From positions 1-64,000 of IMG/VR virus record IMGVR_UViG_3300021091_000020: DNA of 64,000 nt, one strand, 5' to 3'. Of the stretch, positions 845-59,924 are shown piece by piece. The notes under the pieces are model-generated. The model was not told where the DNA came from. It saw nothing but the letters and a program-made list of their open reading frames with translations, and did not search any database. Within the stretch, counting starts at the first letter, position 1. Every line of letters begins with the position of its first letter. The DNA is from a virus. The position numbers were made by a program, and so were the translations under genes.

Positions 845-869
845 TTGTGTAATATAATTGGAGACACCG

Positions 870-2454: not shown

Positions 2455-2465
2455 CAAAATGTCAT
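2449..2465. repeat. 17-bp palindromic element ACATGACAAAATGTCAT, copy 1
   Basis: Identical to 3607-3623. Core ATGACA-AAA-TGTCAT inverted repeat. Confidence 0.7.
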
Positions 2466-2467
2466 GT

Positions 2468-14839: not shown

Positions 14840-16507
<1,668 letters not shown>

Positions 16508-29858: not shown

Positions 29859-29867
29859 AATGCCTCT

Positions 29868-32339: not shown

Positions 32340-32354
32340 TTAGTTAATTTTATT

Positions 32355-33320: not shown

Positions 33321-33330
33321 TTTAATAAAC

Positions 33331-35482: not shown

Positions 35483-35483
35483 A

Positions 35484-38200: not shown

Positions 38201-38203
38201 TTC

Positions 38204-39798: not shown

Positions 39799-39799
39799 A

Positions 39800-41169: not shown

Positions 41170-41193
41170 ATAAACTCCAATTAAAATTTAAAA

Positions 41194-41955: not shown

Positions 41956-41966
41956 TTAATATCACT

Positions 41967-43909: not shown

Positions 43910-43916
43910 ATCATCC

Positions 43917-45341
43917 TCATGTTAAGTATAATTCAAAACGATTTTTTGGTTTAAAGTTTTCCAACACGGCATTTATATCAACAATGATTCTATTAGCCAT
44001 ATTGTCTCTTGACATTCCAACTGCCTCATTCATCAGAAACTCTCTACCCTTTAAACCAGCAGAAGTTCTTTCTTGTTTTGGTGTCTTATACCATTCATAT
44101 AAAGCATTACCAATATCTCTGAAATCGGCACGGTCATCAAAAATATATGGTGTTGGGACTGAACCTTGTAATGATATATTTGATGGCCAAACTGGCTTAA
44201 CCCATTCACCATGTTTCAAATGTCCCCATTCATCTTTTCTATGTAAAGTGTGTATTTCAATATAGTCATCAGCAGTAAAATAATCATTTGTTTCTGGATT
44301 GATAAAACCACATTGGTCTTGCATACCACCTGTTACATTAACAACAATAGGAGTTCCGGCAGAAACAGCTTCTGCTGTTCCCAATCCAAATCCTTCATTT
44401 GATGCCATATTAACAACAACATCTGCATTGTTGTAAAGTATATTCAATTGATTTCCAGAAATTACTTTTTCATCAAACAATACGGAATATTCATTACATA
44501 ATTCTCCAACTAAAGCAACCAAATCAGTTCCATTTGGATCGATAGGTTGCGTGTGCATGAATAACACACAATTGTTTTTAGCATCACCGCCATTCTTATC
44601 AATTAACTGACACATATGTTTGTAAGCAAGAACAACATCACCGGGATGTTTACGATGAATATTTCTGTTATTCCACATTACTACAAATTTATCTGGATTG
44701 TTTCCTCGAATTTTTTTACTTTCATCTTCCATTTTTTGAAAATCAGGATGTCCTTCATTTATTGGAAAAAATATTCCAGTATCAATTCCGTGTGGAACAT
44801 AAGTTATTCTATAACTTGGCGCCGGTTCATTTATTCTAGAGAATATTCTTTTATTTATGCCATATGTTTGTTTTGAAATTGCCATCAATAAATCACAACT
44901 CGCATAAGCTTCTTTGTTCCACATTGGATCCGTTGCGGTATCTCCAATCAAACCAGCACCATCCCAAATGTTCAAATACATTAGTGGTATCTTTTGGCGT
45001 ATTTCATGTTCCATATTATACAACCATCCCCAAAATCTTGGATCTGTAAAGTGAAGAATTGCATCTGGTTTTTCAATTTCAATAAGTCTCCTCAATAAAA
45101 ATGAATCACCATACCCATCATTACAATATACTTTTACATACGCATCTTTTACTCCAGTCATGTTTTTAGTATCTTCACATAAATCCATAACCTTACCTTT
45201 ATCTGGATGATTTATAGCCGCACCAACTTGAACCCAATCAAATTCTCTTGCAGTTCCAATTACTATATCTCTTGATACAGTTGCAATGCCGGATGTTAGT
45301 CTCAAATCATCTGACAACAATAATATCTTTTTCTTTGCCAT
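43917..45341 (-). CDS. GT4-like glycosyltransferase
   Basis: SGIATV, VPHGID, NRN..RK, NEGFGL...EA...GTPIV...TGG. Confidence 0.85.
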   Translation of the reverse strand: MAKKKILLLSDDLRLTSGIATVSRDIVIGTAREFDWVQVGAAINHPDKGKVMDLCEDTKNMTGVKDAYVKVYCNDGYGDSFLLRRLIEIEKPDAILHFTDPRFWGWLYNMEHEIRQKIPLMYLNIWDGAGLIGDTATDPMWNKEAYASCDLLMAISKQTYGINKRIFSRINEPAPSYRITYVPHGIDTGIFFPINEGHPDFQKMEDESKKIRGNNPDKFVVMWNNRNIHRKHPGDVVLAYKHMCQLIDKNGGDAKNNCVLFMHTQPIDPNGTDLVALVGELCNEYSVLFDEKVISGNQLNILYNNADVVVNMASNEGFGLGTAEAVSAGTPIVVNVTGGMQDQCGFINPETNDYFTADDYIEIHTLHRKDEWGHLKHGEWVKPVWPSNISLQGSVPTPYIFDDRADFRDIGNALYEWYKTPKQERTSAGLKGREFLMNEAVGMSRDNMANRIIVDINAVLENFKPKNRFELYLT

Positions 45342-46796: not shown

Positions 46797-47708
46797 TTAG
46801 AATGGCATTATGTTTCTTTTTTCTTTCGGACAAAGTTCTTCGTTAGTATTAAATTCACAATACTTACAGTTTGAATAATTGTTACCGCCTTCGGCAGGAT
46901 ATATTACATCCAATTTATATTCACCGTCTTCGGTAAATACAGTTGTAATAAATTCAGCAATTTCTTTCTTTATATTGTTTTGAGAAACTTTGCCGTTCGA
47001 TGGTTCAAATCTTTGAACTCTTTGTTTCATTGCTTCGTATTCTGCATCTTCAATAATCTTTCTACGCAGAATTAAATACTCAACATTTATTTCTTCTGGA
47101 CTAACACCATATTGTTTTGCATAATATGTTTTGTATAGAACAAGTTGTGATGTCTTTACCTTATCTGCCTTTGCATATTTGTTCCAACCGTTTGTGCTGG
47201 TTTTGAAATCATATATGTATATCTCACCAGTCTTTGTATTCTTAATAACCAAATCCAAAAATCCAACAAGTTTAACTGTTGGATGTGTTTCGAGTGGAAC
47301 AATGTTTATAGGCATTTCAATACCAACCAATTCATAATCTTTCTTTTGAAAGAAATCTGCTCTATGTGCCTTAAACCAATGAAGAATTTGAACACCGTCT
47401 GAATAGTATTCTTTAAGTTCTTTATCACTTGAAAAGTGAACATCTTTATTTTCGGTGAGTAATTTTTTATATTCATCACGAATACCACTCTGTAACATTT
47501 CATTGAGATCAAGTTTATTTGCCTCAACAATTGATTTCTCATAGATGGTCTTAACATACTCTTGCAACACTTCATGCATTACTGTTCCGAATAGAGCAGC
47601 AGTTGATGGTTGATAAGTTGCGAGTTTATCTATGTATGCGAGTTTCCATCTATGAGGACAACCTTTCCATATTTGATATTGTGAAAAAGATACCTTTTTG
47701 TTAGGCAT
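46797..47708 (-). CDS. PD-(D/E)xK RecB/Cas4-like exonuclease
   Basis: SFSQ....CP, FGTVMHE, GFLDL...IYDFKTS, QL..Y, C.YC.F...C. Confidence 0.85.
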   Translation of the reverse strand: MPNKKVSFSQYQIWKGCPHRWKLAYIDKLATYQPSTAALFGTVMHEVLQEYVKTIYEKSIVEANKLDLNEMLQSGIRDEYKKLLTENKDVHFSSDKELKEYYSDGVQILHWFKAHRADFFQKKDYELVGIEMPINIVPLETHPTVKLVGFLDLVIKNTKTGEIYIYDFKTSTNGWNKYAKADKVKTSQLVLYKTYYAKQYGVSPEEINVEYLILRRKIIEDAEYEAMKQRVQRFEPSNGKVSQNNIKKEIAEFITTVFTEDGEYKLDVIYPAEGGNNYSNCKYCEFNTNEELCPKEKRNIMPF

Positions 47709-48079
47709 TATTTACCCCACTTACCTGACTGAACAAGTTGTGCAATGATACCATATACCGAAATATCTTTGAATGTATCATCCAAACATTCACCGACTGC
47801 ATCTTTTGAACCAAACATAATCATTTGTTTGTAACGATTTACTTTATCATTTATACGAAAGAAAAGACCCTGTAAAGAAAGTTTACGGTCTTCTTCTCTT
47901 TCCAATGATGATCCCATAGAGATATTATCAGGACCATAATTAGACTGTTTTGCACAAAATAATTCATATTGTGCCTGTTGTATTCTCTTAAACTCGGCAG
48001 TCATCACCGGAAATTTCTTTTCCATTTCAGTAACAACATCGGGCTGTTTCCTACCCAAATCAATTTCTTTTATTGACAT
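47708..48079 (-). CDS. DUF1599-like (nucleotide-modification-associated) protein
   Basis: F..KQ.NYG..N...GL..R..DK..R...E...DTF.D...YGII pattern. Confidence 0.75.
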   Translation of the reverse strand: MSIKEIDLGRKQPDVVTEMEKKFPVMTAEFKRIQQAQYELFCAKQSNYGPDNISMGSSLEREEDRKLSLQGLFFRINDKVNRYKQMIMFGSKDAVGECLDDTFKDISVYGIIAQLVQSGKWGK

Positions 48080-48090
48080 TTTATTATTCC

Positions 48091-48543
48091 TCATTTTATA
48101 TTCTTTAATTGTTTTTCAAATTTAGTAATATCTGCTTCCGGCGTTCCATATTGTTTCAATATATCAATAAGTTCATCTTGGTTATTCTCTTTCAGAAATC
48201 TGATGTATGCATATACTTCATTTTTTCCCAACTCAAAGTGGTTACAAAGTGTAGATAGAATTTCTGGTTCTATTTCCATTTTGTGTTTAGACTTTATGTA
48301 TTTCAGGAAAATGGATTTCTTTGGGAGAATATCTAGCAAAAGTTTATAGTAATCCTTTGAAGATAGTATTCCATTTGAATATGTTTGAAACTCATTTATG
48401 ACTTCAACAAATTCCGGCTCCATTGAAAAGAAACGAGCAATCATATAATTGCTCCATGATTTTGTATCTTCTTCTGAAAGTTCTTCCCATTTTGTTTTAC
48501 GGAAAGTAACTCCTTTAATATGATCAAATAAACTTTTTGCCAT
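48091..48543 (-). CDS. Clamp-loader small subunit (T4 gp62-like)
   Basis: SLFDHI...YMI.RFFSM....N..Q...LPKK..FLKY.K; next to the clamp-loader ATPase. Confidence 0.7.
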   Translation of the reverse strand: MAKSLFDHIKGVTFRKTKWEELSEEDTKSWSNYMIARFFSMEPEFVEVINEFQTYSNGILSSKDYYKLLLDILPKKSIFLKYIKSKHKMEIEPEILSTLCNHFELGKNEVYAYIRFLKENNQDELIDILKQYGTPEADITKFEKQLKNIK

Positions 48544-48551
48544 GATAATCC

Positions 48552-48821
48552 TTAATCGTTTAGTTGTTGTCTTTTTGTTGGCATAAATTCGTCATTGATA
48601 TGACCACATTGCAAACAAGCATAAGTTGGAATTGGAACAATACCTTCCTGTCCGTTTGGCGAAATCAATGCCGAAATCTTTTTGAAGAAAGTTACTTCGT
48701 GAAAAAATTTGTGTCCACATTTTGCACATGCAATATCTGATGCTTGGTTTAGATCAAAACTAATTCTTTGTTGATCTTGTGGTGGTTGTCCACCACCATT
48801 GATGTCATAAATACCCATCAT
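48552..48821 (-). CDS. Zinc-ribbon protein
   Basis: CAKCG...KKISAL.SP.G...P.Y.C..CGH. Confidence 0.7.
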   Translation of the reverse strand: MMGIYDINGGGQPPQDQQRISFDLNQASDIACAKCGHKFFHEVTFFKKISALISPNGQEGIVPIPTYACLQCGHINDEFMPTKRQQLND

Positions 48822-49759
48822 TTTCTCCTTTGGTCAATTTCCATAATAATTTGAATAAACATAGCCATGGCATTTATTTCATGGTCTACAACAAAACTAT
48901 CTTTGTATTGTGCTTCAGCAATAATCAAAATAATAGTTGATACGAAACCATTAGCGAATGTATCAACAGTATCGTAAAGATGTCTGAACATTTGATTGAA
49001 GTCACGAACATGATTGTCAGCAAGTAACTGACGAATACCATCAAACTTTTCTTTTTTGTTTTTATTTGATTTGAGAATATCAACAATTGAAGAAAGATAA
49101 TTGTGTTCTACCAAAGTTGTTTCATCTAATTTCAAAACACCACCAATAACACATCGTTGAGTTGTGTTAATTACACGGCGAATATCTGGATATGATTGAT
49201 TGATAATCGTTGCAAGATTATCCTTTTCATACTTTATATTCTCACCATCAAGAATTTTTACAAGATGTTGTGCAACTTCTTTTTTTGACGGTGGAACTAT
49301 GTTAAAGATTTGACAACGAGATTGAATTGGATCAATAATCTTATCTACATAGTTACAAGTCAAAATAAAACGAGTTGTCTTACTGAATGTTTCAATTACA
49401 TTACGAAGTGCCGCCTGAGCATTTGGCGTCATGTAATCACATTCATCCAATATAATTAGTTTCAATCCACCAAAACCAATCGAAGAAGCAAACTGTTTGA
49501 TTTTATCACGAACAGTATCTACTGAATTTTCATCTGAAGCATTGATGTAAATATAATTATCTTTTGCAATAGTATTTGCAACAATCTTAGCAAGGGTAGT
49601 TTTACCACTACCGGCATCGCCATACAAAAGAAGATGTGGAACATCACTTGTATCAATATACTGTTGGAATGTTGCCTTTACAGTTTCATTGCCAACATAA
49701 GTGTCAAGTGTCTGTGGACGATACTTTTCATTCCAAATTGTGTGTGAAGCGTTAAACAT
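48818..49759 (-). CDS. Clamp-loader AAA+ subunit (RFC/gp44-like)
   Basis: W.EKYRPQ, GDAGSGKTT, NASD, LDECD, SRC. Confidence 0.93.
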   Translation of the reverse strand: MFNASHTIWNEKYRPQTLDTYVGNETVKATFQQYIDTSDVPHLLLYGDAGSGKTTLAKIVANTIAKDNYIYINASDENSVDTVRDKIKQFASSIGFGGLKLIILDECDYMTPNAQAALRNVIETFSKTTRFILTCNYVDKIIDPIQSRCQIFNIVPPSKKEVAQHLVKILDGENIKYEKDNLATIINQSYPDIRRVINTTQRCVIGGVLKLDETTLVEHNYLSSIVDILKSNKNKKEKFDGIRQLLADNHVRDFNQMFRHLYDTVDTFANGFVSTIILIIAEAQYKDSFVVDHEINAMAMFIQIIMEIDQRRK

Positions 49760-49818
49760 AACATACCTTATTGGTTAATAAATTCATCTACTAATATATG
49801 TAATTTTCGCCTAATATC

Positions 49819-50889
49819 CTAGCGATTTTTTTGAAATACGAAGATTGGCTCTCTTTTATAGCCAGCCCCCATAACAGCGGACAGTATCAGTTGTAGAGTA
49901 TCGGTGTGATCGAAACCAACTAGGTTGGCATACTTTATAGTCATTTCTTCCAAATCTTTATACTTTGGTGTGTTGGCTATGTTTATTAGCATATAGCCAC
50001 CCATTTTCAATCCGTGATAACAATTACGGAAAGTTGATTGAAGAAAACCAGAACCCCAAGTTTCACGGGTTGGAAATTTATTATACGATTGAGTTTCTTC
50101 ATCTGCATATTTTTCAGTATCGAAATATGGTGGCGATGTAAAACATAAATCTAAACTATCTTTTTCGGGAAGATAATCTTCCGAACCCATCATATTCAAT
50201 TGAATATCTTTACCGAGATAATCAAAATCATCGCGTAATTTACACAGACCTTCAAATGTTTTCGTTGATGGTTCTGTTCCAATATAAGTTTTAATATGAG
50301 GGGAAGCAAGAGCACCAACCAATCTTCCACCCCAACCACAAGACATATCCCACATCACACCGTCACCACCATACTTTTTATAGATAACACCAGCAGCAGT
50401 TGGTCTAAAATTGGAAACACCTTGAACACCAGAATATATTTTAAGTGATTGACGAAGACGGTTCTCTTGAAAGGAACTACCCCAATGTTTTGACAACCAC
50501 TTCAAACATTTGCGTATTGTCATTTTGAATGTTTGGTCATTCAAAAAATTATCGATTGGAGACATCTTTGAGTTTCCGCATTTAACTTCCATCGCGTGCG
50601 GAAAGTATGACCACGCTAACCGAAGTCCGTTCATGGTTTGAATTATATCACCGTCTTTGAAAATACTATCATAATCAAACTGTTGTAGTTTTCTCATGTG
50701 TTCATGTTTTTCGTGTTCAGTAATTTTCATATATGGATAACCGTGTTTGCGGTAATACTGAAAGATACAATCTATTGTATCATCCAATTCTCTTTTACCT
50801 GCAAAAAATTCACCGGTCTCTTTCCACAAACGAACTTCTAGCGGATCAACATCAAAGAATTTACTTAAACTATCGCCGTTAGGTTTCAT
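49819..50889 (-). CDS. DNA amino-methyltransferase (GWGGR/SPPY type)
   Basis: WDMSCGWGGRLVGA, FTSPPYF..EKY, C-terminal EPIFVF. Start corrected to MKPNGDSLSKFF. Confidence 0.85.
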   Translation of the reverse strand: MKPNGDSLSKFFDVDPLEVRLWKETGEFFAGKRELDDTIDCIFQYYRKHGYPYMKITEHEKHEHMRKLQQFDYDSIFKDGDIIQTMNGLRLAWSYFPHAMEVKCGNSKMSPIDNFLNDQTFKMTIRKCLKWLSKHWGSSFQENRLRQSLKIYSGVQGVSNFRPTAAGVIYKKYGGDGVMWDMSCGWGGRLVGALASPHIKTYIGTEPSTKTFEGLCKLRDDFDYLGKDIQLNMMGSEDYLPEKDSLDLCFTSPPYFDTEKYADEETQSYNKFPTRETWGSGFLQSTFRNCYHGLKMGGYMLINIANTPKYKDLEEMTIKYANLVGFDHTDTLQLILSAVMGAGYKREPIFVFQKNR

Positions 50890-50890
50890 G

Positions 50891-52516
50891 TTAGGGTTTA
50901 TAGAAAACAAAAATTGGTTCGTGCTTAAACCATTCACCATTGTATAAAACTTTATTTGCTAATCGTTCTGGATCGGAATTACCAATCATCTTTGTCATAA
51001 GCATACACATTTTACCTTTGTATTCCATTCCCAAAGATTTTAATATATCAATAGAATCTTGTTCAAGATTTATTGTTTTGGTTGCAGATACTTTGATATT
51101 TGCAATGTTCCAACAAATATATCTATCATTTTTCAAATAAGCAACAGCAGTTTCCAATGTTGGTTTCAAAAAGTTATCACGCCAATCTGCGTATTCTCCG
51201 TGTGCCTTATATGATTGTGTATCATCATCAGAATACATTTCACGATTGAAATACGGCGGTGATGTGAAAACAAAATCCAATTTACCTTTATACTTTTGAA
51301 AATCAGGATTGAATTGTATTGTTTCAGAACCATCTTGGAAAACTTCGTATGTATGGTCTTCTCTTACATCAAAGAACTTCGATGAAAGTGAACTACCTTT
51401 CTCACCAATAGACTTCAAATAAAAGTCTGCAAGATATTCATAACGAGTAATTCCCAAATCAGGAATTGAATTGTCTGTGTTTGGATCCGTTCCAACATAA
51501 TGTATCGGCCTACTCACCGACATTGCTCCTAAAATTCTTCCACCCCAACCGGCACTTGGATCATATACCGTAACCATTTCACTTGCTGGAATATGTTTTG
51601 TAAAATGTTCATACAAAAACTTTGCAGTCATTGGTGGAAAGTTTACAGCAGGTTGTGAGAAAGAAATACGGAATATCTGAAATGCTTGTGGAAATAATTT
51701 TGCACTCTTTTCATATACTCTTACCAAGAAAACATTTACTCTTGGTTCTTCACCGTCTTTTTTTATCATAAAATTATCAGACAGTTCTTCTATATCACCT
51801 AAATAAAATATCATACTCACATCAAGTATTCCATCCTTAACAAACTCACGGATTTGGTCTGCCTTTATAGTCAAATACTTTGTATATTTTTTATTGTAGG
51901 TTTCAAGTGTGCAAGATATTTTTGATATACGCAAACCTTGTCCATCAAATCTACCATCACCATTCTTAAATGCAAGAAAGAAATCGCGTAGAGTTTCACC
52001 TTCTCGGAAATAAGGGTTCTTGATTTGATTTGATGAAATAGATTTACTATAAAGATACATCGAGTCATTGTAAAGAGTTCTACGCATAACATGATGAAAA
52101 GTATCTTTCATTTCATCGGTAAAGAAATCATAGATTGATCTAGATGTCTCACCACTTGTTCCACTCGCAATCTTTGTTTTCAGCATCGTTGGAAAGAATT
52201 GATTAGCAGCAGAACCATTTTTAGAGAAATTGGCAATGACGCCGATTATATCTTTGTCATTGCCTTTATCTGGATTATGAAAAACTTTTGATGAATTGAA
52301 TTGACGGAGCTTTGAAAACGATTGAACAATCTCCTCTTCGGATCTGCCAACGAGTGGTGGTTTACCGTTTTCATCCCAATCTTTCAAAAACCTCATTCGT
52401 AAATCTTCTACCCATTCGGAAAACTTTTTATCATCATAAGTTACCAATTCACCGTATGTAATATTACACGGCCAAGATAGAACATTACCCTTTTCATAAA
52501 AATATTTTTTCATCAA
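50891..52516 (-). CDS. DNA amino-methyltransferase (GWGGR/SPPY type), large
   Basis: YDPSAGWGGRILGA, FTSPPYFNRE.Y, C-terminal EPIFVF. Confidence 0.85.
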   Translation of the reverse strand: MMKKYFYEKGNVLSWPCNITYGELVTYDDKKFSEWVEDLRMRFLKDWDENGKPPLVGRSEEEIVQSFSKLRQFNSSKVFHNPDKGNDKDIIGVIANFSKNGSAANQFFPTMLKTKIASGTSGETSRSIYDFFTDEMKDTFHHVMRRTLYNDSMYLYSKSISSNQIKNPYFREGETLRDFFLAFKNGDGRFDGQGLRISKISCTLETYNKKYTKYLTIKADQIREFVKDGILDVSMIFYLGDIEELSDNFMIKKDGEEPRVNVFLVRVYEKSAKLFPQAFQIFRISFSQPAVNFPPMTAKFLYEHFTKHIPASEMVTVYDPSAGWGGRILGAMSVSRPIHYVGTDPNTDNSIPDLGITRYEYLADFYLKSIGEKGSSLSSKFFDVREDHTYEVFQDGSETIQFNPDFQKYKGKLDFVFTSPPYFNREMYSDDDTQSYKAHGEYADWRDNFLKPTLETAVAYLKNDRYICWNIANIKVSATKTINLEQDSIDILKSLGMEYKGKMCMLMTKMIGNSDPERLANKVLYNGEWFKHEPIFVFYKP

Positions 52517-53232
52517 TTGTTATCCAATTTTACTAAATAATATTTTGCATCATAGTCATCAATATCAAATTCAACTTTTGCCAAACCTTCTGATGAAACT
52601 TTGAGTGTTCCACCATTCAAATCTTTATTAGCAGCAAGAATACCATTGAAGTATTTAGCAGAGAAACTAATTGGTTCAATATCATCACTAGCATTACAAT
52701 CAATATCAATTGAGATACGATTTGAATTTGTATTTGAATAACCGAGAACAATTTGATACTTATTCAGTTTATCATTTTTTAATACCGTAAACTTTTCAAT
52801 ATCCGATAGAGCAGACTTTGCCTTGATGAATTTATCAATAAATTCTTTTGTAATTGTAATATCCAACTCAAACTTTGGCAATTCTTTCAAGTCTGGTGCA
52901 GGTGGAATAACTGCAAGGTCAGCCAACATATAATTTACAGTAGTTGATTTATCATCAATAGTCAATGAGAATGCCTTATCACCAGCACCATTCACTTGAA
53001 AGTTTACTGTGTTACCAAGAACACCAAGAAGACTTACAAGCAAGTCTGTGTTATACACACCAAACTTCCAATCATCACCTTGAAAACTTTTCAACTTAAC
53101 TTCGCCAACTACACATTTATCATCAGAAATAAAACGAGTGGAAAGCCCACCATTTGCATTCCAAGCAACAGACTGTATCAGCTTACCCAAATGATACTTA
53201 CTGATAAAGTTCAACAACTTTGATTTTTCCAT
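52513..53232 (-). CDS. Sliding clamp (gp45/PCNA-like)
   Basis: 239-aa two-lobed alpha/beta pattern (FGVYNT..L..LL; L.VSSEGL..VEF.....Y.LV); lies between the polymerase and clamp loader. Confidence 0.75.
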   Translation of the reverse strand: MEKSKLLNFISKYHLGKLIQSVAWNANGGLSTRFISDDKCVVGEVKLKSFQGDDWKFGVYNTDLLVSLLGVLGNTVNFQVNGAGDKAFSLTIDDKSTTVNYMLADLAVIPPAPDLKELPKFELDITITKEFIDKFIKAKSALSDIEKFTVLKNDKLNKYQIVLGYSNTNSNRISIDIDCNASDDIEPISFSAKYFNGILAANKDLNGGTLKVSSEGLAKVEFDIDDYDAKYYLVKLDNN

Positions 53233-53267
53233 AACAACAATCCTTAATGAATAGTAAATAATTTATG

Positions 53268-53298
53268 CTAATATATGAAATTTTTGCGTAATTTCAAA
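53268..53298 (-). promoter_or_regulatory. Bacteroidota-type promoter (variant TATATTAG)
   Basis: On the - strand: TTTG, N19, TATATTAG, upstream of the clamp gene. Confidence 0.6.
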
Positions 53299-55810
53299 AC
53301 GAAAAAAACTTTTGTGCAACTTTTTTATTCTCGGTTGGGAAATCCCACTGCATTGCCTCATAGAAATTTTTTAACTTGCCATCCAATTCCGAAACAAATA
53401 ATTCATTGGCATCAAAATAATCCTTGACAAATTGTATAATTTCTTCTGGATCCGAATCACCACGAAATGCCAACTCTTCCAATCCGTATTTGTTTGATTT
53501 CAAATAAGCAATCTTAACCTTATCACCATTTTTAATTGGCGGATATTTAGGAGGACAACCAAATATAGTCAATAACTTATTATAGTTTATAGCCGCCTTG
53601 ATATGTGATGGCGTTCCCTTTGCATACTTACCGAGAACATCATCTTTAACGGGAGTAGCATACTTTTTAATATCTTTTATTGAAGAAGTTTTTGCAACCT
53701 CGTTTATCAAAACATCATTCAAATTCTTTTTGAAAGTCAATATGTATTCATCAATTTCATTTTTATCTTTACCTTTGAGAATATCAATCATCACATCCTT
53801 CATACATTTTTGAAATGATTTGGGAAAAGATGAACGAACAATATCCAAACCTTTAACTTCCAACTTATCCATTGGAACACCGTTATCAGAAATAATCCAA
53901 AGTGCATATCTCTTTTTCTTTTGCCAGAATCCTGTTCTACCAATCATTTCTTGTTTGATTTCCAAACGATGTTTGTCAGTATTGAATATCTTTTTGGCAA
54001 AAACATCATAAAATTGATTGACATAATCTTGAACTTCCGTTGCAATCTCATAAATCTTCGGCGTCATTGTTTCAATATCGTTTGTATCAATATCCGGAAA
54101 TCTATTATTCACCAAAGGTAAACACGAAACAAACACAGAGTCAGTATCAACATACTGCACATAATCAATATCATCGGTTTTCAATTCTTTATTGTATTTC
54201 ATATTGATAGCAGCTTCTGTTTTCTTGATAACCGTTTGACCAGAAAGTGTAACTGCTTCTGCATTGTCAATATCATAAAAACGAAATGCAGGTAATCCCA
54301 AGATACCATACATACTATTCAAAAGAATTTTCTGAACAAGTTGTCTTTTCTTGTAAAACTCATACTTTTCTGTATTTCCAGCTTTACCCCACTTCTTCAT
54401 TTCATTTTTATATTCCACCCGTTTATCAAACCAATCTGAAAGAATTGCTGGAATAAGTCCTGTTTTATCTGAACTATACATGACACCATTTGATGAAACT
54501 GTATACTTGTATTTATCAAGAAATGCTTTTAATTTTTCTTTTGATATACGGTCATTGCCAACAATATATTCATCTTTTTTTCCACGAAGAAAATCCTCAG
54601 CATTCCAATCTTCAATCTTAGCAATCTTTGTTTCTGGAGAAATGTTTAGTGTCATAATGATTGACGGATATAGTGATGTCAAATCCAAGTCATACATCCA
54701 ATCATATCTACCCGGAACAGGATCCTTAACAAATGCACCGATAAATCCTTTCTCACCGCTCTCTTTCAATTCTTGCATCTTTTCTTGTCTATCAGCAGGT
54801 TTGTTCGGAGCAACAACACCGCCAATATGTTTAAGATAAGTAAGCATAGCACCTTCCAAATACTTTGATGAATATACAAAGTCTTCATAAGGAACATGGC
54901 CAACATGAGCGATACCACGAACTAAATCAATATACTGTAACTTCTTGTCCAATTCGATAACCAACTCAACGTCAGTAATGTTGTATTCTATAAATGTATC
55001 AATATCATTTTCCATCAAGTCATCAAGGTTGCCTTCATACTCAACCTTACCACGACCAAGTTCGGTCATACAAACTGCGTTTAGAGCATAAGATGGTAAT
55101 TCTTTATATGAGAATTTTTTATACACGGTCATATAATCTAACACGGATGTTCCACCGATTGTATAACGATTACGATATGGTGAATAAAACATTTCACCAA
55201 TTACTGAAAGACTATTTGCTTGTTTTTTACCAAGAACTCTTTTGATACGATTATACAAATATGGAATATCGAATGCATCACAATTCCATCCAGTCATAAT
55301 ATGGGGTTGGATTTCTTGAATAGCATCTATGAATTTAAGCAACAAAGTTTTTTCATCTGGACAAGGAATTACTTTTTTGTTTTCCGTAGTTTTATTTTCC
55401 AATTTTCTTTTCTTGTCCAATACAAGAATTGTATATTGGTTTGTTGCGGAATCATGGTAAGCAATAGATGTAACTTCGTTATTACCTTGTGTTGGATCAG
55501 GAATACCGGTAATCATTTCAACCTCAATATCAAATGTCATTGTAACAATTCCTTTCGAGGGCATATCGGAATCACTATACATATCAACAAGAATACGAGT
55601 TGTCTCTGCAATATCCGATTCAAATAGGTCAGGATCATTCTTTACAAAGTTTGTAACCTTTGAAAGTTTATCACCGTATAGAGAAATATATTTACCGTTA
55701 GGATCTTTCTTGTAAGCATAAGGCGTGTATTCAAAATGCATCAAACCTTTGGCATCATCCCACACCCATGCTTCTTTTGTATTTGTTTTAACAAAAATGT
55801 TTTGATACAT
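53294..55810 (-). CDS. Family B DNA polymerase
   Basis: Exonuclease motifs FDIE, GWN...FD, YN..D. Polymerase motifs DLTSLYPS, KILLNSMYG, YVDTDS, KKRY. Start corrected to MYQNIF. Confidence 0.97.
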   Translation of the reverse strand: MYQNIFVKTNTKEAWVWDDAKGLMHFEYTPYAYKKDPNGKYISLYGDKLSKVTNFVKNDPDLFESDIAETTRILVDMYSDSDMPSKGIVTMTFDIEVEMITGIPDPTQGNNEVTSIAYHDSATNQYTILVLDKKRKLENKTTENKKVIPCPDEKTLLLKFIDAIQEIQPHIMTGWNCDAFDIPYLYNRIKRVLGKKQANSLSVIGEMFYSPYRNRYTIGGTSVLDYMTVYKKFSYKELPSYALNAVCMTELGRGKVEYEGNLDDLMENDIDTFIEYNITDVELVIELDKKLQYIDLVRGIAHVGHVPYEDFVYSSKYLEGAMLTYLKHIGGVVAPNKPADRQEKMQELKESGEKGFIGAFVKDPVPGRYDWMYDLDLTSLYPSIIMTLNISPETKIAKIEDWNAEDFLRGKKDEYIVGNDRISKEKLKAFLDKYKYTVSSNGVMYSSDKTGLIPAILSDWFDKRVEYKNEMKKWGKAGNTEKYEFYKKRQLVQKILLNSMYGILGLPAFRFYDIDNAEAVTLSGQTVIKKTEAAINMKYNKELKTDDIDYVQYVDTDSVFVSCLPLVNNRFPDIDTNDIETMTPKIYEIATEVQDYVNQFYDVFAKKIFNTDKHRLEIKQEMIGRTGFWQKKKRYALWIISDNGVPMDKLEVKGLDIVRSSFPKSFQKCMKDVMIDILKGKDKNEIDEYILTFKKNLNDVLINEVAKTSSIKDIKKYATPVKDDVLGKYAKGTPSHIKAAINYNKLLTIFGCPPKYPPIKNGDKVKIAYLKSNKYGLEELAFRGDSDPEEIIQFVKDYFDANELFVSELDGKLKNFYEAMQWDFPTENKKVAQKFFSF

Positions 55811-55811
55811 A

Positions 55812-57038
55812 TTATACCTTTTTGAACATCCATATTGGTTCACAAAACTTTTTATCTTTATTCTCTTGAGCAAACTGAACACTATCATCAAGAAAGTGTC
55901 CGTCTCTTGTAGCTGTTCCTGCACCGGCAGAGTTAGGTCTTTTGGACATTTCCATTCCGATACATCCCAAGTATTCCATTCCACTCTCTACAAGAAAATC
56001 ATTCATCGGGTTTGTTATCTCTAACCATTGTCTACCCGTAGACCATGCGGAATTTGTGTAAACATCTGCAATGTTTATTGCCATGACACCACCAACTCGC
56101 AATGATGGTATAATATTTCCTAGTGTCTTTTGTAGAAAATCTTTATTCCACATATCAATTCCTTTATATCGAACCCAACTCTGTGTATCTGATTGTGAAT
56201 ACTTCTCAACATTGAAATACGGTGGTGATGTAAACACCAAATCAAAATGTTCTGGATATTGTGAGAAATCAAAATCTTCTGCTGGTGATTGATAGAAATT
56301 TGTTTTCTTCTTACCTTCAAAGAAACCTAAATTCTTTTCATAGAACTGGACTTGTTCATCATATATCGGATGGTTTTCTACTCTTGGATCCAATCCAACA
56401 TAATGTTCGGTGCAAGAGGCAGCGTAAAATCCCGCAAGTCTGTCACCCCATCCCATAGAAAAGTCTAATACATTTTTTGCACCTAACATTTCGTACATAC
56501 ACTTTGCAACATTAGGTTTGAACTGTGAACAAATGTATTTACGCAATCCTAACATTGTTCTCAATTCTGATTTACCGATTGTTTCCATTTTAAGAGAATA
56601 CATAGAACCCATAAGTGACTTCATAAACTTATGGTTTTGCCATGTTCTAGCAGGACCTGGTGATACGGATGCATCAACTTCCCAACGGTTCTTTTGTTGG
56701 AAATAGTTTGATGCATCGTTACCAGTATTAAGACGACTGAAATATAACTGTTTTCCACCATAAGTCAAAGCATATTTTGGTTCGGATGCTTTTCTTGGAA
56801 ACCACTCACCTTCTTTTAGAATTTCATTCCAACGAATACCTTTCAATTTTAGAAACTCGCTTTGAGCACTTTCGATTGTAATATCCGCATACGGTAGTGG
56901 ATATGTCATTGCTATTTCAGCCAGACGGTCTTTGACATATTCTTTATCAAAGTTTTCTTTTATGTATGTTATTTGTTCAGCAGTTATGGATAGATACGGA
57001 TTCATTCCGTAAAATTGTTGGAAATAATCTTCTTCCAC
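55812..57038 (-). CDS. DNA amino-methyltransferase (GWGDR/SPPY type)
   Basis: LDFSMGWGDRLAG, FTSPPYFN.EKY, C-terminal EPIWMF. GTG start. Confidence 0.85.
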   Translation of the reverse strand: MEEDYFQQFYGMNPYLSITAEQITYIKENFDKEYVKDRLAEIAMTYPLPYADITIESAQSEFLKLKGIRWNEILKEGEWFPRKASEPKYALTYGGKQLYFSRLNTGNDASNYFQQKNRWEVDASVSPGPARTWQNHKFMKSLMGSMYSLKMETIGKSELRTMLGLRKYICSQFKPNVAKCMYEMLGAKNVLDFSMGWGDRLAGFYAASCTEHYVGLDPRVENHPIYDEQVQFYEKNLGFFEGKKKTNFYQSPAEDFDFSQYPEHFDLVFTSPPYFNVEKYSQSDTQSWVRYKGIDMWNKDFLQKTLGNIIPSLRVGGVMAINIADVYTNSAWSTGRQWLEITNPMNDFLVESGMEYLGCIGMEMSKRPNSAGAGTATRDGHFLDDSVQFAQENKDKKFCEPIWMFKKV

Positions 57039-57051
57039 AAAACACCTTTTG

Positions 57052-57348
57052 TTAATCTATTGAATAAAAAGCACCTATACGGTCACGAAGGTCATATACT
57101 ATTTGATATTTTCTAATAAATTCCTCTTGTGAATACACAATAGGTTTATTTTCTTCAACTACAATATAAGAATTTGGAAAACATTTTTGACCATCACCGA
57201 ATGTAATTACATATTTGTTTTCAAAGTTTTCATTCCTACCTATAATACATTCCCATTTTTCAGATGCTTCTTTTGCAGATTGTTCGCTACCATTAAAATG
57301 ATAGGCACCGAATTTACTGCGTTTTGGTTCGACCATAACAAAATCCAT
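57052..57348 (-). CDS. Hypothetical protein
   Basis: Operon packing. Confidence 0.65.
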   Translation of the reverse strand: MDFVMVEPKRSKFGAYHFNGSEQSAKEASEKWECIIGRNENFENKYVITFGDGQKCFPNSYIVVEENKPIVYSQEEFIRKYQIVYDLRDRIGAFYSID

Positions 57349-57353
57349 AACAA

Positions 57354-57638
57354 TTATTTCCTCATAATTTTTGTTTTAACTTCTTTCATAAATTCTGTAT
57401 CATTATCGCGTATTACCGGATCAATATAAGTCTTTCCGTCTTTTGATGATGTCCAAGGATCAGAAATTTCATCTTCCTCCGGCATCATTATTTCTTCCAA
57501 TAATTCCAAATCACCATGAGTTGCGGTGATGTGATCTTTAATTTGTTTTCTACTCTTACGATGTGCATGGACTTTATCATATTTTTCAGAAATTCCAGCA
57601 TTGCCTATTATAGGATTTTTTCTATATGAACGGCTCAT
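57354..57638 (-). CDS. Conserved basic phage protein
   Basis: MSRSYRKNP....SEK.DK..AHR..R...DPW...KDGK.Y. Confidence 0.7.
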   Translation of the reverse strand: MSRSYRKNPIIGNAGISEKYDKVHAHRKSRKQIKDHITATHGDLELLEEIMMPEEDEISDPWTSSKDGKTYIDPVIRDNDTEFMKEVKTKIMRK

Positions 57639-57658
57639 AATAATACCTTTAATAAAAA

Positions 57659-58306
57659 TTAAATGTCAATATCTTTCCAATCACCATTTGCAATAGTTTT
57701 TGTTGCCCATTTACCCATTATGTTTGCGTGTTTGTAGTAGTTATCTTCTATTATCGTTTCAAGTAATGTGGTTTCAAACATGAATGGTCTACCACTAACC
57801 TTTGTCATAAACTCACCACCTTGCCCCATCTTTCTATCTTTGAACTTAACTTCTTTACCAAAACCAGGATACGAACTTTCACAATCACTTGTTCCAATTA
57901 GTGTAGAACCATCGCCGTCTTTTGGAATATAGAGAATAGAATCCTGTTGATACTTACCGCCAAGATTTATCAAGTCTTCTCGCAATTTTCCTTTGTCTTT
58001 CAAATCAACAACAAAGTAAACATTTTCTTTAACTTCTTTTGCATCAGGTGTTCCGTAGTTTTCAATATAAGCACCTTGAACTGCAGTAACACCGTAACCC
58101 ATCATTTGAAGATTGGCATATAATTGTCTGTTTCTTTTTTGATTGTCACCTTTTGAATATGGTTTATCTTCAGCTGTAGCACAACCTTCTTTGGAACGAA
58201 ATGCAGTTATTGTGCCACAATCATGTTCTTCCATATGTTTTGACAATCGAGCAAGCCCACTCTCGTTTAATTGTTTATCTGGTAATAAATGTTTTAACTT
58301 TGCCAT
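57659..58306 (-). CDS. Conserved phage protein with LKHLL..QLNE leader
   Basis: NES.L.R...ITAFR...N..RN..L...G.Y.E...E..YFV...LG.KY.QDS.L; ATATTTAT motif upstream. Confidence 0.7.
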   Translation of the reverse strand: MAKLKHLLPDKQLNESGLARLSKHMEEHDCGTITAFRSKEGCATAEDKPYSKGDNQKRNRQLYANLQMMGYGVTAVQGAYIENYGTPDAKEVKENVYFVVDLKDKGKLREDLINLGGKYQQDSILYIPKDGDGSTLIGTSDCESSYPGFGKEVKFKDRKMGQGGEFMTKVSGRPFMFETTLLETIIEDNYYKHANIMGKWATKTIANGDWKDIDI

Positions 58307-58349
58307 TGTTTCTCTCTGTTATGTAAACTGTTTACAATAAATATCAAAA

Positions 58350-58844
58350 TTATTTCTTATCTGTTGAACCAAAACCACCATCACCTCTATTACTATCGGA
58401 CAATTCTTTTACTTCTTCCAAGTGAACTTTTGGATATGGTATGATTACCAATTGAGCAACTTTGTCACCAATAACTGGAATTATTCCTTCGTTTACGCCT
58501 GAATATGGTAACTCAAATCTTACAAGAATTTCACCACGATAATTTGAATCAATAACACCTACTGAATTTTTAAGTGAGACACCTGGTGCCGATTTTGTAA
58601 TTGAACTTCTTGGAAATAGAAGTCCAACATGGCCATGTGGAATTTCTACAGCAATACCAGTTCCAAATTCCATAAAGGTATCTGATACTCTAAATGATGT
58701 TGCTGTCAAATCCATACCAGCATCACCATCTTGAGCATATTGTGGTGTTACTGCTTCTGAAACTAATTTACGAAATTTTACGGTTAGATCAAAATCATTT
58801 TTATATTCTACCGTAACATTAGGATTCGATGTATGCCAACCCAT
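58350..58844 (-). CDS. dut: dUTPase (trimeric)
   Basis: AGMDL, PRSS, GVIDSNYRGEI, AQL, RGDGGFGST. Confidence 0.95.
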   Translation of the reverse strand: MGWHTSNPNVTVEYKNDFDLTVKFRKLVSEAVTPQYAQDGDAGMDLTATSFRVSDTFMEFGTGIAVEIPHGHVGLLFPRSSITKSAPGVSLKNSVGVIDSNYRGEILVRFELPYSGVNEGIIPVIGDKVAQLVIIPYPKVHLEEVKELSDSNRGDGGFGSTDKK

Positions 58845-58845
58845 T

Positions 58846-59595
58846 TTAACCTCCTACATTCCAAAATAATGCATCTTCCGATGCGTGTTCTTTAATAAAT
58901 GACCAAACTTTTGAGTCATAGTAATCCGAAGAAGGAAATGGTGGCTTCTCTGCCGGTTTACATTTTTGTTCAAATTTATATTTCGATATGAATACTTCTG
59001 CCCTACCCCTCTCTCTGTCTGTTGTATTATGGCCAACCCTAACACCATAGACTTTTGCATCTGGCCATGCCCTCTGTAATCCTCTTGAAAGAACTCCCGA
59101 ACTTATACAAGACCAAACTTCTTTTGGTTTGATTGGCAACTGACTAGCAATTCTGGCAACTTCATCAATAACAACAGGATGATCAAGACCGAATGGCAAC
59201 AATTGTGTATCGGGTGTTTCAAGGGCATACTTTTTAGCAACACTTTGGATGTGTGTTAGAAACCCCATAGGAACTTCTATGATGTTTGCACCAATAGATA
59301 TTGCTTCTTCGGTTAGTGGTAAGTGTTTTCCTTTTGGAATAACAACGGTTGCCTTCAATCCTAAATCTTTACAAGCATAAGCAAGTGCTACTTGAGCATA
59401 GCCAACTCTTGGAGACGCATATACCCATTCACGAACATGGGATTGTGATTGAAGATAACGATAAAGGAAACGTCTTTTTGTTCCACCCGGAAGCAAATCA
59501 TCACGGACTACCCAAATGTTTTCGTGTTTTTCGATAACAATTTCAGGTAAAGTTATAGTGACATCTTTCGTGGGATATTGAAAGAAGTCTGTCAT
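58846..59595 (-). CDS. PLP-dependent enzyme, fold type II (TrpB/ACC-deaminase-like)
   Basis: VVRDDLLPGGTKRR (PLP lysine), GYAQVALA, SSGVL, YDSKVW, LFWNVG. Confidence 0.8.
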   Translation of the reverse strand: MTDFFQYPTKDVTITLPEIVIEKHENIWVVRDDLLPGGTKRRFLYRYLQSQSHVREWVYASPRVGYAQVALAYACKDLGLKATVVIPKGKHLPLTEEAISIGANIIEVPMGFLTHIQSVAKKYALETPDTQLLPFGLDHPVVIDEVARIASQLPIKPKEVWSCISSGVLSRGLQRAWPDAKVYGVRVGHNTTDRERGRAEVFISKYKFEQKCKPAEKPPFPSSDYYDSKVWSFIKEHASEDALFWNVGG

Positions 59596-59603: not shown

Positions 59604-59861
59604 TTAAAGACTATTGATAATTTGTTCGTAATATGACATTGGTTTTAATCCAACAACTTGCTGAACTACTTTACCATGTTTTTCAAACAAAACAGTTGGA
59701 ACTGCACGAACACCATATTGTTGTGCTATTTCTGAATTTTGATCAATATCTATTTTTTGATAGCCAATCATTGGATATTCCCCAACTATTTTTTGTATGA
59801 TTGGCGTTAATTGTTTACACGGTTGGCACCATGCTGCTGTGAAATGTTTTATTGTAATCAT
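59604..59861 (-). CDS. Thioredoxin
   Basis: FTAAWCQPCK, VRAVPT. Confidence 0.9.
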   Translation of the reverse strand: MITIKHFTAAWCQPCKQLTPIIQKIVGEYPMIGYQKIDIDQNSEIAQQYGVRAVPTVLFEKHGKVVQQVVGLKPMSYYEQIINSL

Positions 59862-59892: not shown

Positions 59893-59924
59893 CAAATATA
59901 TGAATTTTTGAAATAAAAAGCAAG
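59893..59924 (-). promoter_or_regulatory. Bacteroidota-type promoter heading the replication/modification operon
   Basis: On the - strand: CTTG, N20, TATATTTG. Confidence 0.7.

Follow-up and report, generated by a model that had tools for sequence, protein, structure and literature searches.

A PLP enzyme linked to methyltransferase-like proteins in a marine phage points to a possible DNA-modification module working without 5-hydroxymethyluracil

Among known systems, those nearest to the locus analysed here include the pathways by which phages M6 and ViI hypermodify thymidine, which combine a kinase (5-HMUDK), a transferase (aGPT-Pplase2) and a PLP decarboxylase (gp52 and gp226, respectively) and are both set among phage DNA-metabolism genes. 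According to the available text of PMC8989533, M6 gp52 and ViI gp226 decarboxylate base-attached amino acids in DNA and require a free alpha-amine, K36 is the Schiff-base lysine of gp52, and the PLP enzyme of these pathways also occurs fused to the amino-acid:DNA transferase and to the kinase. In Synechococcus phage S-B43, CmoX, a homologue of C5-cytosine methyltransferases, uses carboxy-SAM made by CmoA to produce 5-carboxymethylcytosine, a handle for further modification, and a PLP enzyme plays no part in the system as presented in the available portion of that paper (PMC12783734). Phages also carry anti-restriction sets of several paralogous PF01555 methyltransferases, which have motif I, an SPPY or CPPY motif IV, a Rossmann fold and differing putative specificity domains. 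On the RNA side, the 3-amino-3-carboxypropyl (acp) transferases TYW2, Tsr3 and TapT demonstrate that a SAM-binding enzyme can pass the amino-acid arm of its cofactor to a nucleobase, and TYW2, a paralogue of Trm5, provides a precedent for a switch from methyl to acp transfer. We know of no PLP partner for any of these three RNA enzymes.

The window studied here is a stretch of 64,000 nucleotides (positions 1 to 64,000) of IMG/VR record IMGVR_UViG_3300021091_000020, a marine phage record of 123.5 kb that is ~70% complete. Between 46.8 and 59.9 kb, the minus strand encodes a thioredoxin, a PLP enzyme, a dUTPase, an S-AdoMet-lyase-like protein, three methyltransferase-like paralogues (MT1-3), PolB, a clamp, a clamp loader and a DUF1599-like protein, placing the PLP and MT genes among replication genes (Table 1). 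Every gene named in a preliminary description of this DNA was found on the minus strand at the coordinates given, although that description had left out the thioredoxin, PolB, clamp, clamp loader and S-AdoMet-lyase-like genes, and its three paralogous SAM enzymes, which do lie in this run as MT1-3, are part of a window total of five MT-family genes.

Table 1. Features of the window considered in this study, with the evidence for each.
Feature	Coordinates	Strand	Evidence and remarks
PLP enzyme, 249 aa	58846..59595	-	PF00291, phrog_7093, AF2 model, Foldseek
dUTPase	58350..58844	-	PF00692, E 2.5e-16; adjoins PLP gene
S-AdoMet-lyase-like protein, 215 aa	57659..58306	-	PF23780, E 3.2e-13
MT1, methyltransferase-like, 408 aa	55812..57038	-	GWGDR 196-200, SPPY 271-274; N-terminal domain ~170 aa
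MT2, MT1 paralogue, 541 aa	50891..52516	-	GWGGR at 323, SPPY at 419; N-terminal region ~290 aa
MT3, MT1 paralogue, 373 aa	49819..50940	-	GWGGR at 202, SPPY at 269
DUF1599-like protein, 128 aa	47708..48094	-	PF07659 (weak), phrog_1485
CPPY-type N6_N4 methyltransferase, 318 aa	2390..3346	+	PF01555, 43.1 bits
Second CPPY-type N6_N4 methyltransferase, 303 aa	858..1769	+	PF01555, 61 bits
Promoter-like TTG-N-TAnnTTTG motif, upstream of thioredoxin	59893..59923	-	Sequence read

Sequence comparison places the PLP enzyme in the family of M6 gp52 and ViI gp226 (phrog_7093), in agreement with the kinship to M6-type decarboxylases proposed earlier. It matches phrog_7093 over residues 23-248 (E 6.7e-36) and PF00291 (E 4.2e-10, 39.9 bits, cut-off 35), shares 26.9% identity with M6 phage by tblastn (E 5e-7), and is recovered when M6 gp52 is used as the reverse query against the phage's own genome (E 4.5e-11). 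The AF2 model (pLDDT 91.7) has as its top PDB match in Foldseek an ACC-deaminase homologue, 1j0a (TMq 0.81), and the enzyme is therefore assigned to fold type II; the best structural matches are of the ACC-deaminase and D-cysteine-desulfhydrase types, with cysteine synthase and SbnA also among them. K40, which is invariant across 35 PLP-enzyme sequences and aligned to K36 of M6 gp52, is the candidate Schiff-base lysine, and the C-terminal residues P219/Y226/D227/K229/W231/W245/N246 (P..YD.K.W...WN motif) are common to both enzymes in the alignment. The family is essentially viral: the genomes of 185,579 species contain only 9 loci, each of which lies in a MAG or bin assembly.

MT1-3 combine a class-I Rossmann fold with motif I (GxG) and motif IV, (D/N/S)PP(Y/F). 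Their alignment bears out the common motifs and unusual motif order noted previously, with G196-W-G-x-R200, F269-T-S-P-P-Y-F275, N322-I-A and E400-P-I..F invariant, and with variable N-terminal regions of ~160-290 aa preceding motif I and then motif IV; pairwise BLASTP matches (E 3e-23 to 5e-24) cover the C-terminal catalytic part only. Similarity to PF01555 straddles the gathering cut-off of 26.7 bits, with MT1 (E 2.4e-4, 21.5 bits) and MT2 (E 2.1e-5, 25.0 bits) below it and MT3 (E 4.4e-6, 27.3 bits) narrowly above, whilst MT1 matches phrog_12517 with E 9.2e-13 and the MT-family HMM with E 2.5e-85. The AF2 model of MT1 (pLDDT 89.8) retrieves generic class-I methyltransferases at probability 1.0, but with TMq <=0.35 among the Foldseek matches listed, and these structural neighbours act on small molecules or RNA. 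No relative of the MT family emerged from a profile search of the PDB, and no acp transferase (the class of TYW2, Tsr3, TapT and BtaA) appeared either in that search or among the Foldseek matches listed; this lowers the likelihood of membership in the acp transferase class, but leaves unaffected the claim that the enzymes may work like acp transferases, which themselves act on RNA. MT1-3 share motifs, fold and the presence of several paralogues with differing putative specificity domains with the anti-restriction sets of other phages, and differ from them in that MT1 and MT2 fall under the Pfam cut-off, no PDB relative is found by sequence, the variable domain is N-terminal, and fusion or adjacency to a PLP enzyme is recurrent.

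The default reaction of the family is methyl transfer. Its neighbours in the Atlas are viral N6_N4_Mtase clusters, one of which is automatically named a cytosine-N4 methyltransferase, and cultured Bacteroides and Staphylococcus phages, none of which is among the 46 records matching the PLP enzyme, encode homologues that retain G(W/F)GxR, SPPYF, NI and E.I..F. Since PLP-free homologues keep the same motifs, the PLP-linked members carry no sequence mark of a different chemistry. The two CPPY-type genes resemble each other (BLASTP E 4e-30) and match the MT-family HMM, with E 2.6e-15 for the gene at 2390-3346 and E 9.9e-14 for the second. The former has, by eye, the STSIFDPVLCE..., DPFAGGSVRG and CPPY...LEVYS blocks of the PLP-carrying methyltransferase in gp1 of Erythrobacter phage R6L, as well as 47% identity to a methyltransferase beside the PLP gene in another locus (L079), and may be one more client of the PLP enzyme.

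The new result is the tight link between the PLP enzyme and this MT family. An MT-family frame occurs in 53 of 80 IMG/VR PLP loci and abuts the PLP gene in 17; where at least 5 kb is available on either side of the PLP gene (n = 20), an MT-family gene is present in 19 loci and abuts in 7. The linkage persists across different gene orders, with relatives of MT2 abutting the PLP gene in three loci (L041, L046 and L054) and MT-family frames doing so in others too. From the MT side, a PLP gene lies within 22 of 80 MT1-like loci and was not seen in the other 58. Of five long MT records (50-170 kb) searched over their whole length, the four of at least 61 kb contain a PLP gene; none was found in the fifth, a 50-kb record, or in any of five fragments of 37-50 kb. 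Both genes are present in all seven records of at least 61 kb.

Fusions carry the association further. An MT-family domain sits on the same polypeptide in 24 of the 150 best PLP cluster representatives, in four architectures: 11 carry the PLP domain as an insert within the methyltransferase, and three other fusion orders account for 13 more. R6L gp1, for example, consists of ParB, a first methyltransferase half, the PLP insert and a second methyltransferase half, and in proteins of this type the insert falls between motifs II and III, in the cofactor-binding half. The GWGDR/SPPY family itself is carried by 8 of 16 longer PLP homologues. Abutting genes and repeated fusions together support a functional tie between the PLP enzyme and the methyltransferase-like genes that is far stronger than could be read from the sequence alone. 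ParB and HTH domains are also fused to PLP and MT domains, which suggests that DNA is the substrate. Four fused proteins begin with ~35 hydrophobic residues resembling a membrane anchor, something that is odd in a DNA enzyme.

Other neighbouring genes follow the PLP gene less closely. The dUTPase and the DUF1599-like protein, both previously counted as pathway members, are encoded in only 24 and 3 of the 80 PLP loci, respectively, and the latter matches phrog_1485 (E 2.7e-10) but does not reach the cut-off for PF07659, nucleotide modification associated domain 1 (E 9.6e-4, 19.9 bits, cut-off 25), so neither assignment is supported. The S-AdoMet-lyase-like protein (PF23780, 50.2 bits, cut-off 28), for which sequence searching of the PDB gave no relative, is encoded in 20 of the 80 loci and is regarded here as context for the module. 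Nearly all ORFs from ~19.5 kb to the record end are on the minus strand, and shared orientation therefore does not establish the single operon originally described. As for the promoter assigned to it, a promoter-like TTG-N17-21-TAnnTTTG motif is present upstream of thioredoxin, has a second copy at 58345-58372(-) and is enriched in the genome (37 against 15.4 +/- 3.4 in mononucleotide shuffles), but it was not picked up as a sigma-70 site in a scan that found no enrichment of such sites (71 against 69.4).

The comparison with M6 and ViI shows the same PLP family, the aligned lysine, the C-terminal motif, a position amid DNA-metabolism genes and, as in the available text of PMC8989533, fusion of the PLP enzyme to what may be a group-installing enzyme. 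What differs is the company of the PLP enzyme, whose identity to gp52 is only ~27%. No match to PF00303 and no homologue of M6 gp51, gp53, gp54 or gp58 was found in the phage's own 123.5-kb record, where, as this is ~70% complete, partners could sit in the absent part; the complete genomes of R6L and Microcystis phage Mae-JY30, which carry the same PLP clade, likewise have no PF00303 match and no homologue of gp51 or gp54, whereas the M6 control matches. Homologues of the dUMP hydroxymethylase, the 5-hmU kinase and the amino-acid:DNA transferase were found in none of the three, and a radical-SAM isomerase was not found in the own record either. This agrees with the earlier remark that the usual partners are not recognisable. 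The partner here is instead an N6/N4-methyltransferase-like enzyme, which makes C or A, modified at an exocyclic nitrogen, a more probable target than C5 of T.

These observations would best be explained by a single DNA-modification module, independent of 5-hydroxymethyluracil, in which the PLP enzyme acts together with the MT-family enzymes (MT1-3, and perhaps the products of the two CPPY genes). By analogy with the fusions of the thymidine pathways, the fusion partner of the PLP enzyme would be the installer of the amino acid, and SAM is, to our knowledge, the sole amino-acid-bearing substrate of the methyltransferase fold. We tentatively propose, at a rough probability of 40%, that an exocyclic base nitrogen receives the amino-acid arm of SAM from the MT-like enzyme, and that the PLP enzyme then decarboxylates this arm. 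The MT-like enzyme would bind SAM, its N-terminal domain would pick the DNA site, and the base would be flipped out into the SPPY pocket; we take the motif to suggest cytosine N4 as the target, adenine N6 being possible too. The 3-amino-3-carboxypropyl arm, and not the methyl group, would be moved to this nitrogen, presumably with release of methylthioadenosine. The gp52-like PLP enzyme, judging by homology, would then form a Schiff base via K40 with the free alpha-amine of the DNA-borne amino acid, and removal of CO2 would yield a cationic 3-aminopropyl group that could shield the DNA against host nucleases. Such a scheme would resemble CmoA/CmoX, as far as the available text of PMC12783734 describes it, in that a group other than methyl is moved onto DNA by a phage-encoded homologue of DNA methyltransferases, which has another phage enzyme as its partner, there one that handles the cofactor.

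A conceivable but rather unlikely alternative is that the MT family consists of ordinary m4C/m6A DNA methyltransferases of differing specificity that provide anti-restriction camouflage, with the PLP enzyme coupled in some other way (e.g., clearing or reshaping a SAM-derived by-product) or an independent DNA-acting fellow traveller. The PF01555 similarity, SPPY motif IV and class-I fold agree with this, as do the viral N6_N4_Mtase neighbours, the intact catalytic motifs of PLP-free homologues in cultured phages and the 58 of 80 MT1-like loci with no nearby PLP gene. A methyl group, however, would give the PLP enzyme nothing to act on, the 11 insertions and 13 other fusions are hard to explain without shared chemistry, and the 5-hmU partners that would supply an independent PLP substrate were not found in the two complete genomes. 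The position of the R6L-type insert within the cofactor-binding half would also suit a PLP enzyme that decarboxylates free SAM, the MT-like enzymes then using the product as an aminopropyl donor or a lyase-proof methyl donor. The S-AdoMet lyase reaction depends on the SAM carboxylate, so a decarboxylated cofactor would be useful to a phage that also encodes an S-AdoMet-lyase-like protein. A phage methyltransferase homologue working with a phage-made SAM analogue has a precedent in the available text of PMC12783734, but we consider this route improbable, as the substrates of the characterised relatives are amino acids carried on DNA and not free SAM (PMC8989533, available text), no more than 20 of 80 PLP loci encode the lyase-like protein, and the cofactor motifs are unchanged in PLP-free homologues.

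There is very little to recommend the idea of the PLP enzyme as the installer, adding an amino acid to a flipped base by beta- or gamma-replacement, with the MT-like protein giving site recognition and base flipping or methylating the product. Beta-replacement enzymes (cysteine synthase, SbnA) are among the fold-II matches and fusion brings both active sites into one protein, but the top structural matches are of other types, the nearest characterised relatives are decarboxylases in the available text of PMC8989533, and the invariant SAM-binding motifs of the MT-like proteins argue for catalytic use of SAM. It is just as hard to credit that the module targets RNA, protein, lipid or a small molecule; the hydrophobic N-termini of four fused proteins and the small-molecule and RNA methyltransferases around MT1 would fit such a target, whereas the ParB and HTH fusions, the position amid replication genes, the essentially viral distribution of the PLP family and its known DNA substrates (PMC8989533, available text) speak for DNA.

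Transfer of the SAM amino-acid arm followed by decarboxylation thus remains the preferred reading, and two cultured phages make the proposed module testable. The fusion of PLP and MT domains in other viruses suggests that viral DNA may be decorated in a manner not described so far.

The partnership between the PLP enzyme, a 249-aa fold-II protein, and the three paralogous methyltransferase-like proteins MT1, MT2 and MT3 is strongly supported by comparative genomics. A frame belonging to the MT family was found in 53 of 80 IMG/VR loci carrying the PLP gene and abutted it in 17 of the 80, bearing out the co-occurrence that the preliminary description had put forward as a check; with at least 5 kb available on both sides, the figures are 19/20 and 7/20. 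Stop and start codons overlap in several of the abutting pairs. The pairing is kept across phage groups whose neighboring genes are otherwise different, an MT2-like gene preceding the PLP gene in loci L041, L046 and L054, and the PLP gene preceding an MT1-like gene in L075 and L076. Approached from the other side, only 22 of 80 MT1-like loci include a PLP gene. Five records of 50–170 kb seemed to lack one, and whole-record searching recovered it in four of these (61–170 kb), the 50-kb record being negative; the same search found none in five fragments of 37–50 kb that are 16–27% complete (0/5). In records of at least 61 kb, PLP and MT genes occur together in 7/7. The MT-like protein has the appearance of an obligate partner of the PLP enzyme. 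The predicted complex of MT1 with the PLP enzyme scored 0.22 against a mark of 0.32, which counts neither for nor against the pairing.

The two activities are also found within single chains. Gp1 of Erythrobacter phage R6L (810 aa) consists of a ParB domain, methyltransferase motifs X, I and II, the PLP domain, and then the methyltransferase from motifs III and IV (FSCPPY) onward, while in Microcystis phage Mae-JY30 the R6L-type methyltransferase is intact and overlaps a separate PLP gene. Of the longer PLP-enzyme homologues, 8 out of 16 have the GWGDR/SPPY family of MT1–3 in the same chain. Among the best 150 of 2,511 PLP cluster representatives, 41 are at least 350 aa long, and 24 of these hold an MT-family domain in one of four architectures: an SPPY domain at the N-terminus (n = 10) or at the C-terminus (n = 1), or a CPPY enzyme that is split by the PLP domain (n = 11) or N-terminal to it (n = 2). 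The second commonest fusion partner of the PLP family is a YunG-like domain of ∼130 aa (PF24585, weak matches; P0122, P0123, P0180, P0183, P0192, P0217, P0262 and others), of which no homologue was found in the genome studied here. Four fused MT-like and PLP proteins (P0133–P0136) begin with ∼35 hydrophobic residues resembling a membrane anchor, which is odd for a DNA-modifying enzyme. On a 253-kb Actinomycetota MAG contig (L166:6547-8741), a ParB_N and N6_N4_Mtase frame overlaps, in another reading frame, a frame ending in the PLP domain; a frameshift or an assembly error in a fusion gene, or a prophage copy, could account for this.

Other genes recur around the pair. In 47 loci (L025–L072 and others; e.g., L052:5161-5901), a HD-like protein of 215–257 aa is encoded no more than 4 kb from the PLP gene; the 123.5-kb record has no homologue of it, and there the dUTPase gene adjoins the PLP gene instead. 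In a divergent phage group (L054:10735-15428 and related loci), the genes that follow the MT2-like and PLP pair encode a glycosyltransferase-like protein, a protein resembling TET-associated glycosyltransferases (PF20691, E 1.8e-9), a GmrSD_N/HNH protein, a HD-like protein and two MT1-like proteins, and the whole looks like a larger DNA-modification island.

The whole record (123.5 kb, 33% G+C), of which the window makes up the first 64 kb, is ∼70% complete according to CheckV, and no end repeats were found in it. From ∼19.5 kb to the record end nearly every ORF lies on the same strand as the PLP and MT genes (see table). GT4 glycosyltransferases and a sugar-metabolism island at 29–45 kb lie downstream of the run, and genes for a class II ribonucleotide reductase, DnaB, a 5′-3′ exonuclease, RecA and gp32 lie upstream, at 64–82 kb; the PLP and MT genes are thus embedded in a module for replication and nucleotide metabolism. 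No cultured phage matched the region by megablast.

Features of the PLP/MT gene run and of other regions of the record discussed in the text
Feature	Position	Strand	Remarks
TTG-N17-21-TAnnTTTG motif	59893-59923	-	
Thioredoxin	59604-59861	-	
PLP enzyme	58846-59595	-	249-aa PALP-domain protein
dUTPase	58350-58844	-	
S-AdoMet-lyase-family protein	57659-58306	-	215 aa; PF23780, 50.2 bits, cut-off 28
Two small ORFs	between S-AdoMet-lyase-family gene and MT1	-	
MT1	55812-57038	-	
Family-B DNA polymerase	53294 to about 55810	-	
Sliding-clamp-like protein	52513-53232	-	
MT2	50891-52516	-	
MT3	49819-50940	-	
RFC-like clamp loader, zinc-ribbon protein, 150-aa protein	in this order after MT3	-	
DUF1599-like protein	47708-48094	-	128 aa
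PD-(D/E)XK nuclease	last of the run from 59.9 to 46.8 kb	-	
CPPY-type N6_N4_Mtase	858-1769	+	PF01555 above Pfam cut-off; family HMM
CPPY-type N6_N4_Mtase	2390-3346	+	PF01555 above Pfam cut-off; family HMM
Sugar island	29022-45341	-	UDP-glucose dehydrogenase, NAD epimerase/dehydratase, GT2, GT7, GT4, FkbM/TylF-type methyltransferases
Glycosyltransferase	43917-45341	-	474 aa; PF20706 "GT4 in conflict systems", 29.2 bits, cut-off 26
GroEL/Cpn60-type chaperonin	14861-16507	+	PF00118, E 1e-75

The preliminary description had joined the three SPPY enzymes, the PLP enzyme, the dUTPase and the DUF1599-like protein into a single-operon pathway. Its observations are confirmed and its interpretation is supported in part: the PLP-MT partnership stands, whilst the remaining members are not counted in the pathway and a single operon is not supported. 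The S-AdoMet-lyase-family gene was missing from its list. The dUTPase is present in 24 of 80 PLP loci and DUF1599 in 3 of 80, neither showing a specific link, and the DUF1599 match itself reaches 19.9 bits against a Pfam cut-off of 25. The proposed promoter corresponds to a TTG-N17-21-TAnnTTTG motif that is enriched genome-wide (37 observed, 15.4 ± 3.4 expected); a second copy precedes the S-AdoMet-lyase-like gene. A scan for sigma-70 promoters showed no enrichment (71, with 69.4 expected).

The assignment of the PLP enzyme to fold II holds, with an AF2 model of pLDDT 91.7 whose PDB matches are headed by 1j0a, a homologue of ACC deaminase (TMq 0.81); PDB searching by sequence gave weak serine-dehydratase matches only. 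The protein matches phrog_7093 (E 6.7e-36) and 46 of 50,697 cultured-phage records, 42 of the 46 being M6-type Pseudomonas phages with ∼27% identity. M6 gp52 and ViI gp226 are described as PLP-dependent decarboxylases whose substrates are amino acids already joined to the thymines of polymeric DNA and which require a free alpha-amine, with K36 of gp52 proposed as the internal-aldimine lysine (PMC8989533). K40, the candidate Schiff-base lysine of the PLP enzyme, aligns with gp52 K36, and the alignment places P219, Y226, D227, K229, W231, W245 and N246 of the C-terminus in common between the two proteins. The family is large, taking in 2,511 of 1.84 billion cluster representatives at E ≤ 1e-3. 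Among the collected genomes of 185,579 species it turned up at nine loci only, each in a MAG or bin assembly; it is essentially viral.

MT1–3 are paralogues, as first described, with G196-W-G-x-R200, F269-T-S-P-P-Y-F275, N322-I-A and E400-P-I invariant in their alignment; most of these positions (GWG.R, F269, SPPY, N322-I and E400-P) are also invariant across 44 sequences. Pairwise BLASTP (E 3e-23 to 5e-24) covers the C-terminal catalytic part only, and the unusual domain order was likewise confirmed, the 160–290 dissimilar N-terminal residues preceding motif I, which in turn precedes motif IV. The enzymes match phrog_12517 and, weakly, PF01555 (21.5, 25.0 and 27.3 bits, cut-off 26.7); their profile found no relative in the PDB by sequence, in NCBIfam none of ten key proteins, these included, scored above a cut-off, and their Atlas neighbors are viral N6_N4_Mtase clusters only. 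Among the structural matches listed, the confident MT1 model (pLDDT 89.8) resembles only generic class-I methyltransferases, Trm11 being one of them (TMq ≤ 0.35). The three genes originally listed proved to be an undercount, as the family HMM adds two CPPY-type genes, making five in the record. The second of these shares with the R6L gp1 methyltransferase, as read by eye, the blocks STSIFDPVLCE..., DPFAGGSVRG and CPPY...LEVYS; it is also 47% identical to a methyltransferase adjoining the PLP gene in locus L079. Longer relatives of the MT-like enzymes carry HTH fusions which, together with the ParB fusions, suggest that the substrate is DNA. An Asp/Asn beta-hydroxylase-type domain (PF05118; P0153) and helix-turn-helix domains (P0157–P0159, P0165) are also seen fused to the catalytic domain of the family.

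The usual partners of such PLP enzymes were not found, in line with the preliminary description: tblastn found no homologue of M6 gp51, gp53, gp54 or gp58 in the ∼70% complete record, which also has no thymidylate-synthase-like gene. Because that record is incomplete, the complete R6L and Mae-JY30 genomes were also searched, and neither has a PF00303, gp51 or gp54 homologue, the M6 control matching each time. Two further routes were rejected: one of the TET/JBP type, suggested by the TAGT-like glycosyltransferase of L054, as the record has no PF12851, and one in which the PLP enzyme is a desulfhydrase feeding a PAPS-reductase-like enzyme, suggested by R6L gp7, as it has no PF01507.

The chemistry that we infer is coherent and would proceed in two steps, the MT-like enzyme moving the 3-amino-3-carboxypropyl (acp) arm of SAM to the exocyclic nitrogen of a flipped base, and the PLP enzyme then decarboxylating it to an aminopropyl group. 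We put the probability of acp transfer followed by decarboxylation at about 0.4. It is favored because the PLP family requires an alpha-amino acid on its substrate, and the SAM arm is the one amino acid that the partner methyltransferase fold already binds. It agrees with what the preliminary description had suggested. A switch from methyl to acp transfer has a precedent in TYW2/Trm5. The scheme parallels the thymidine pathways of M6 and ViI, where the installing amino-acid:DNA transferase and the PLP enzyme are joined in a fusion (PMC8989533), and in the phage CmoA/CmoX system a methyltransferase homologue is reported to move a non-methyl group onto DNA (PMC12783734).

The default expectation is nevertheless that the MT-like enzymes transfer methyl groups, and it stands, since the full set of catalytic motifs is present in PLP-free homologues from Bacteroides phage DAC16 and Staphylococcus phage Alsa_4; no residues were seen that distinguish PLP-linked from PLP-free homologues. 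The 58 of 80 MT1-like loci with no PLP gene nearby also count against the acp scheme, as do the hydrophobic N-termini of the four fused proteins. An order in which the PLP enzyme makes decarboxylated SAM ahead of the MT-like step would also fit two observations, namely that the PLP domain is inserted within the cofactor-binding half of the methyltransferase and that the phage has a SAM-lyase-like gene, although no more than 20 of 80 PLP loci include such a gene. The lyase-like protein, for which a PDB search by sequence found no relative, presents a paradox of its own, being encoded by a phage that also has five SAM-type DNA methyltransferase-like genes and several sugar methyltransferases, so that SAM would be both destroyed and needed. 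Under the acp scheme, it might starve host SAM-dependent defenses whilst the phage chemistry proceeds.

To our knowledge, all phage hypermodifications involving a PLP decarboxylase begin from 5-hydroxymethyluracil. Here the same PLP family is tied, through gene adjacency and four kinds of fusion, to N6/N4-methyltransferase-like enzymes in genomes with no detected 5-hmU route, among them those of the cultured phages Erythrobacter phage vB_EliS_R6L and Microcystis phage Mae-JY30. Searching the main full texts of the literature for acp or aminopropyl DNA modification and for phage PLP-methyltransferase fusions turned up no description of such a system, and for R6L and its gp1 only papers citing the phage. 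It is possible, and on present evidence rather doubtful, that a widespread and almost exclusively viral system of PLP and MT-like enzymes modifies phage DNA with a SAM-derived amino-acid or aminopropyl group, placed on N4 of cytosine or N6 of adenine. Its acp transferase would have derived from ordinary amino-methyltransferases and been paired with, or fused to, a gp52-like PLP decarboxylase, and in the present phage a single PLP enzyme would serve three (perhaps five) site-specific paralogues. If true, this chemistry would bring a novel class of base modification to DNA, put SAM to a new use there and supply the first DNA aminocarboxypropyl transferase, and would bear on restriction evasion, on marine virome sequencing and on enzyme tools placing primary amines on DNA at defined sites.
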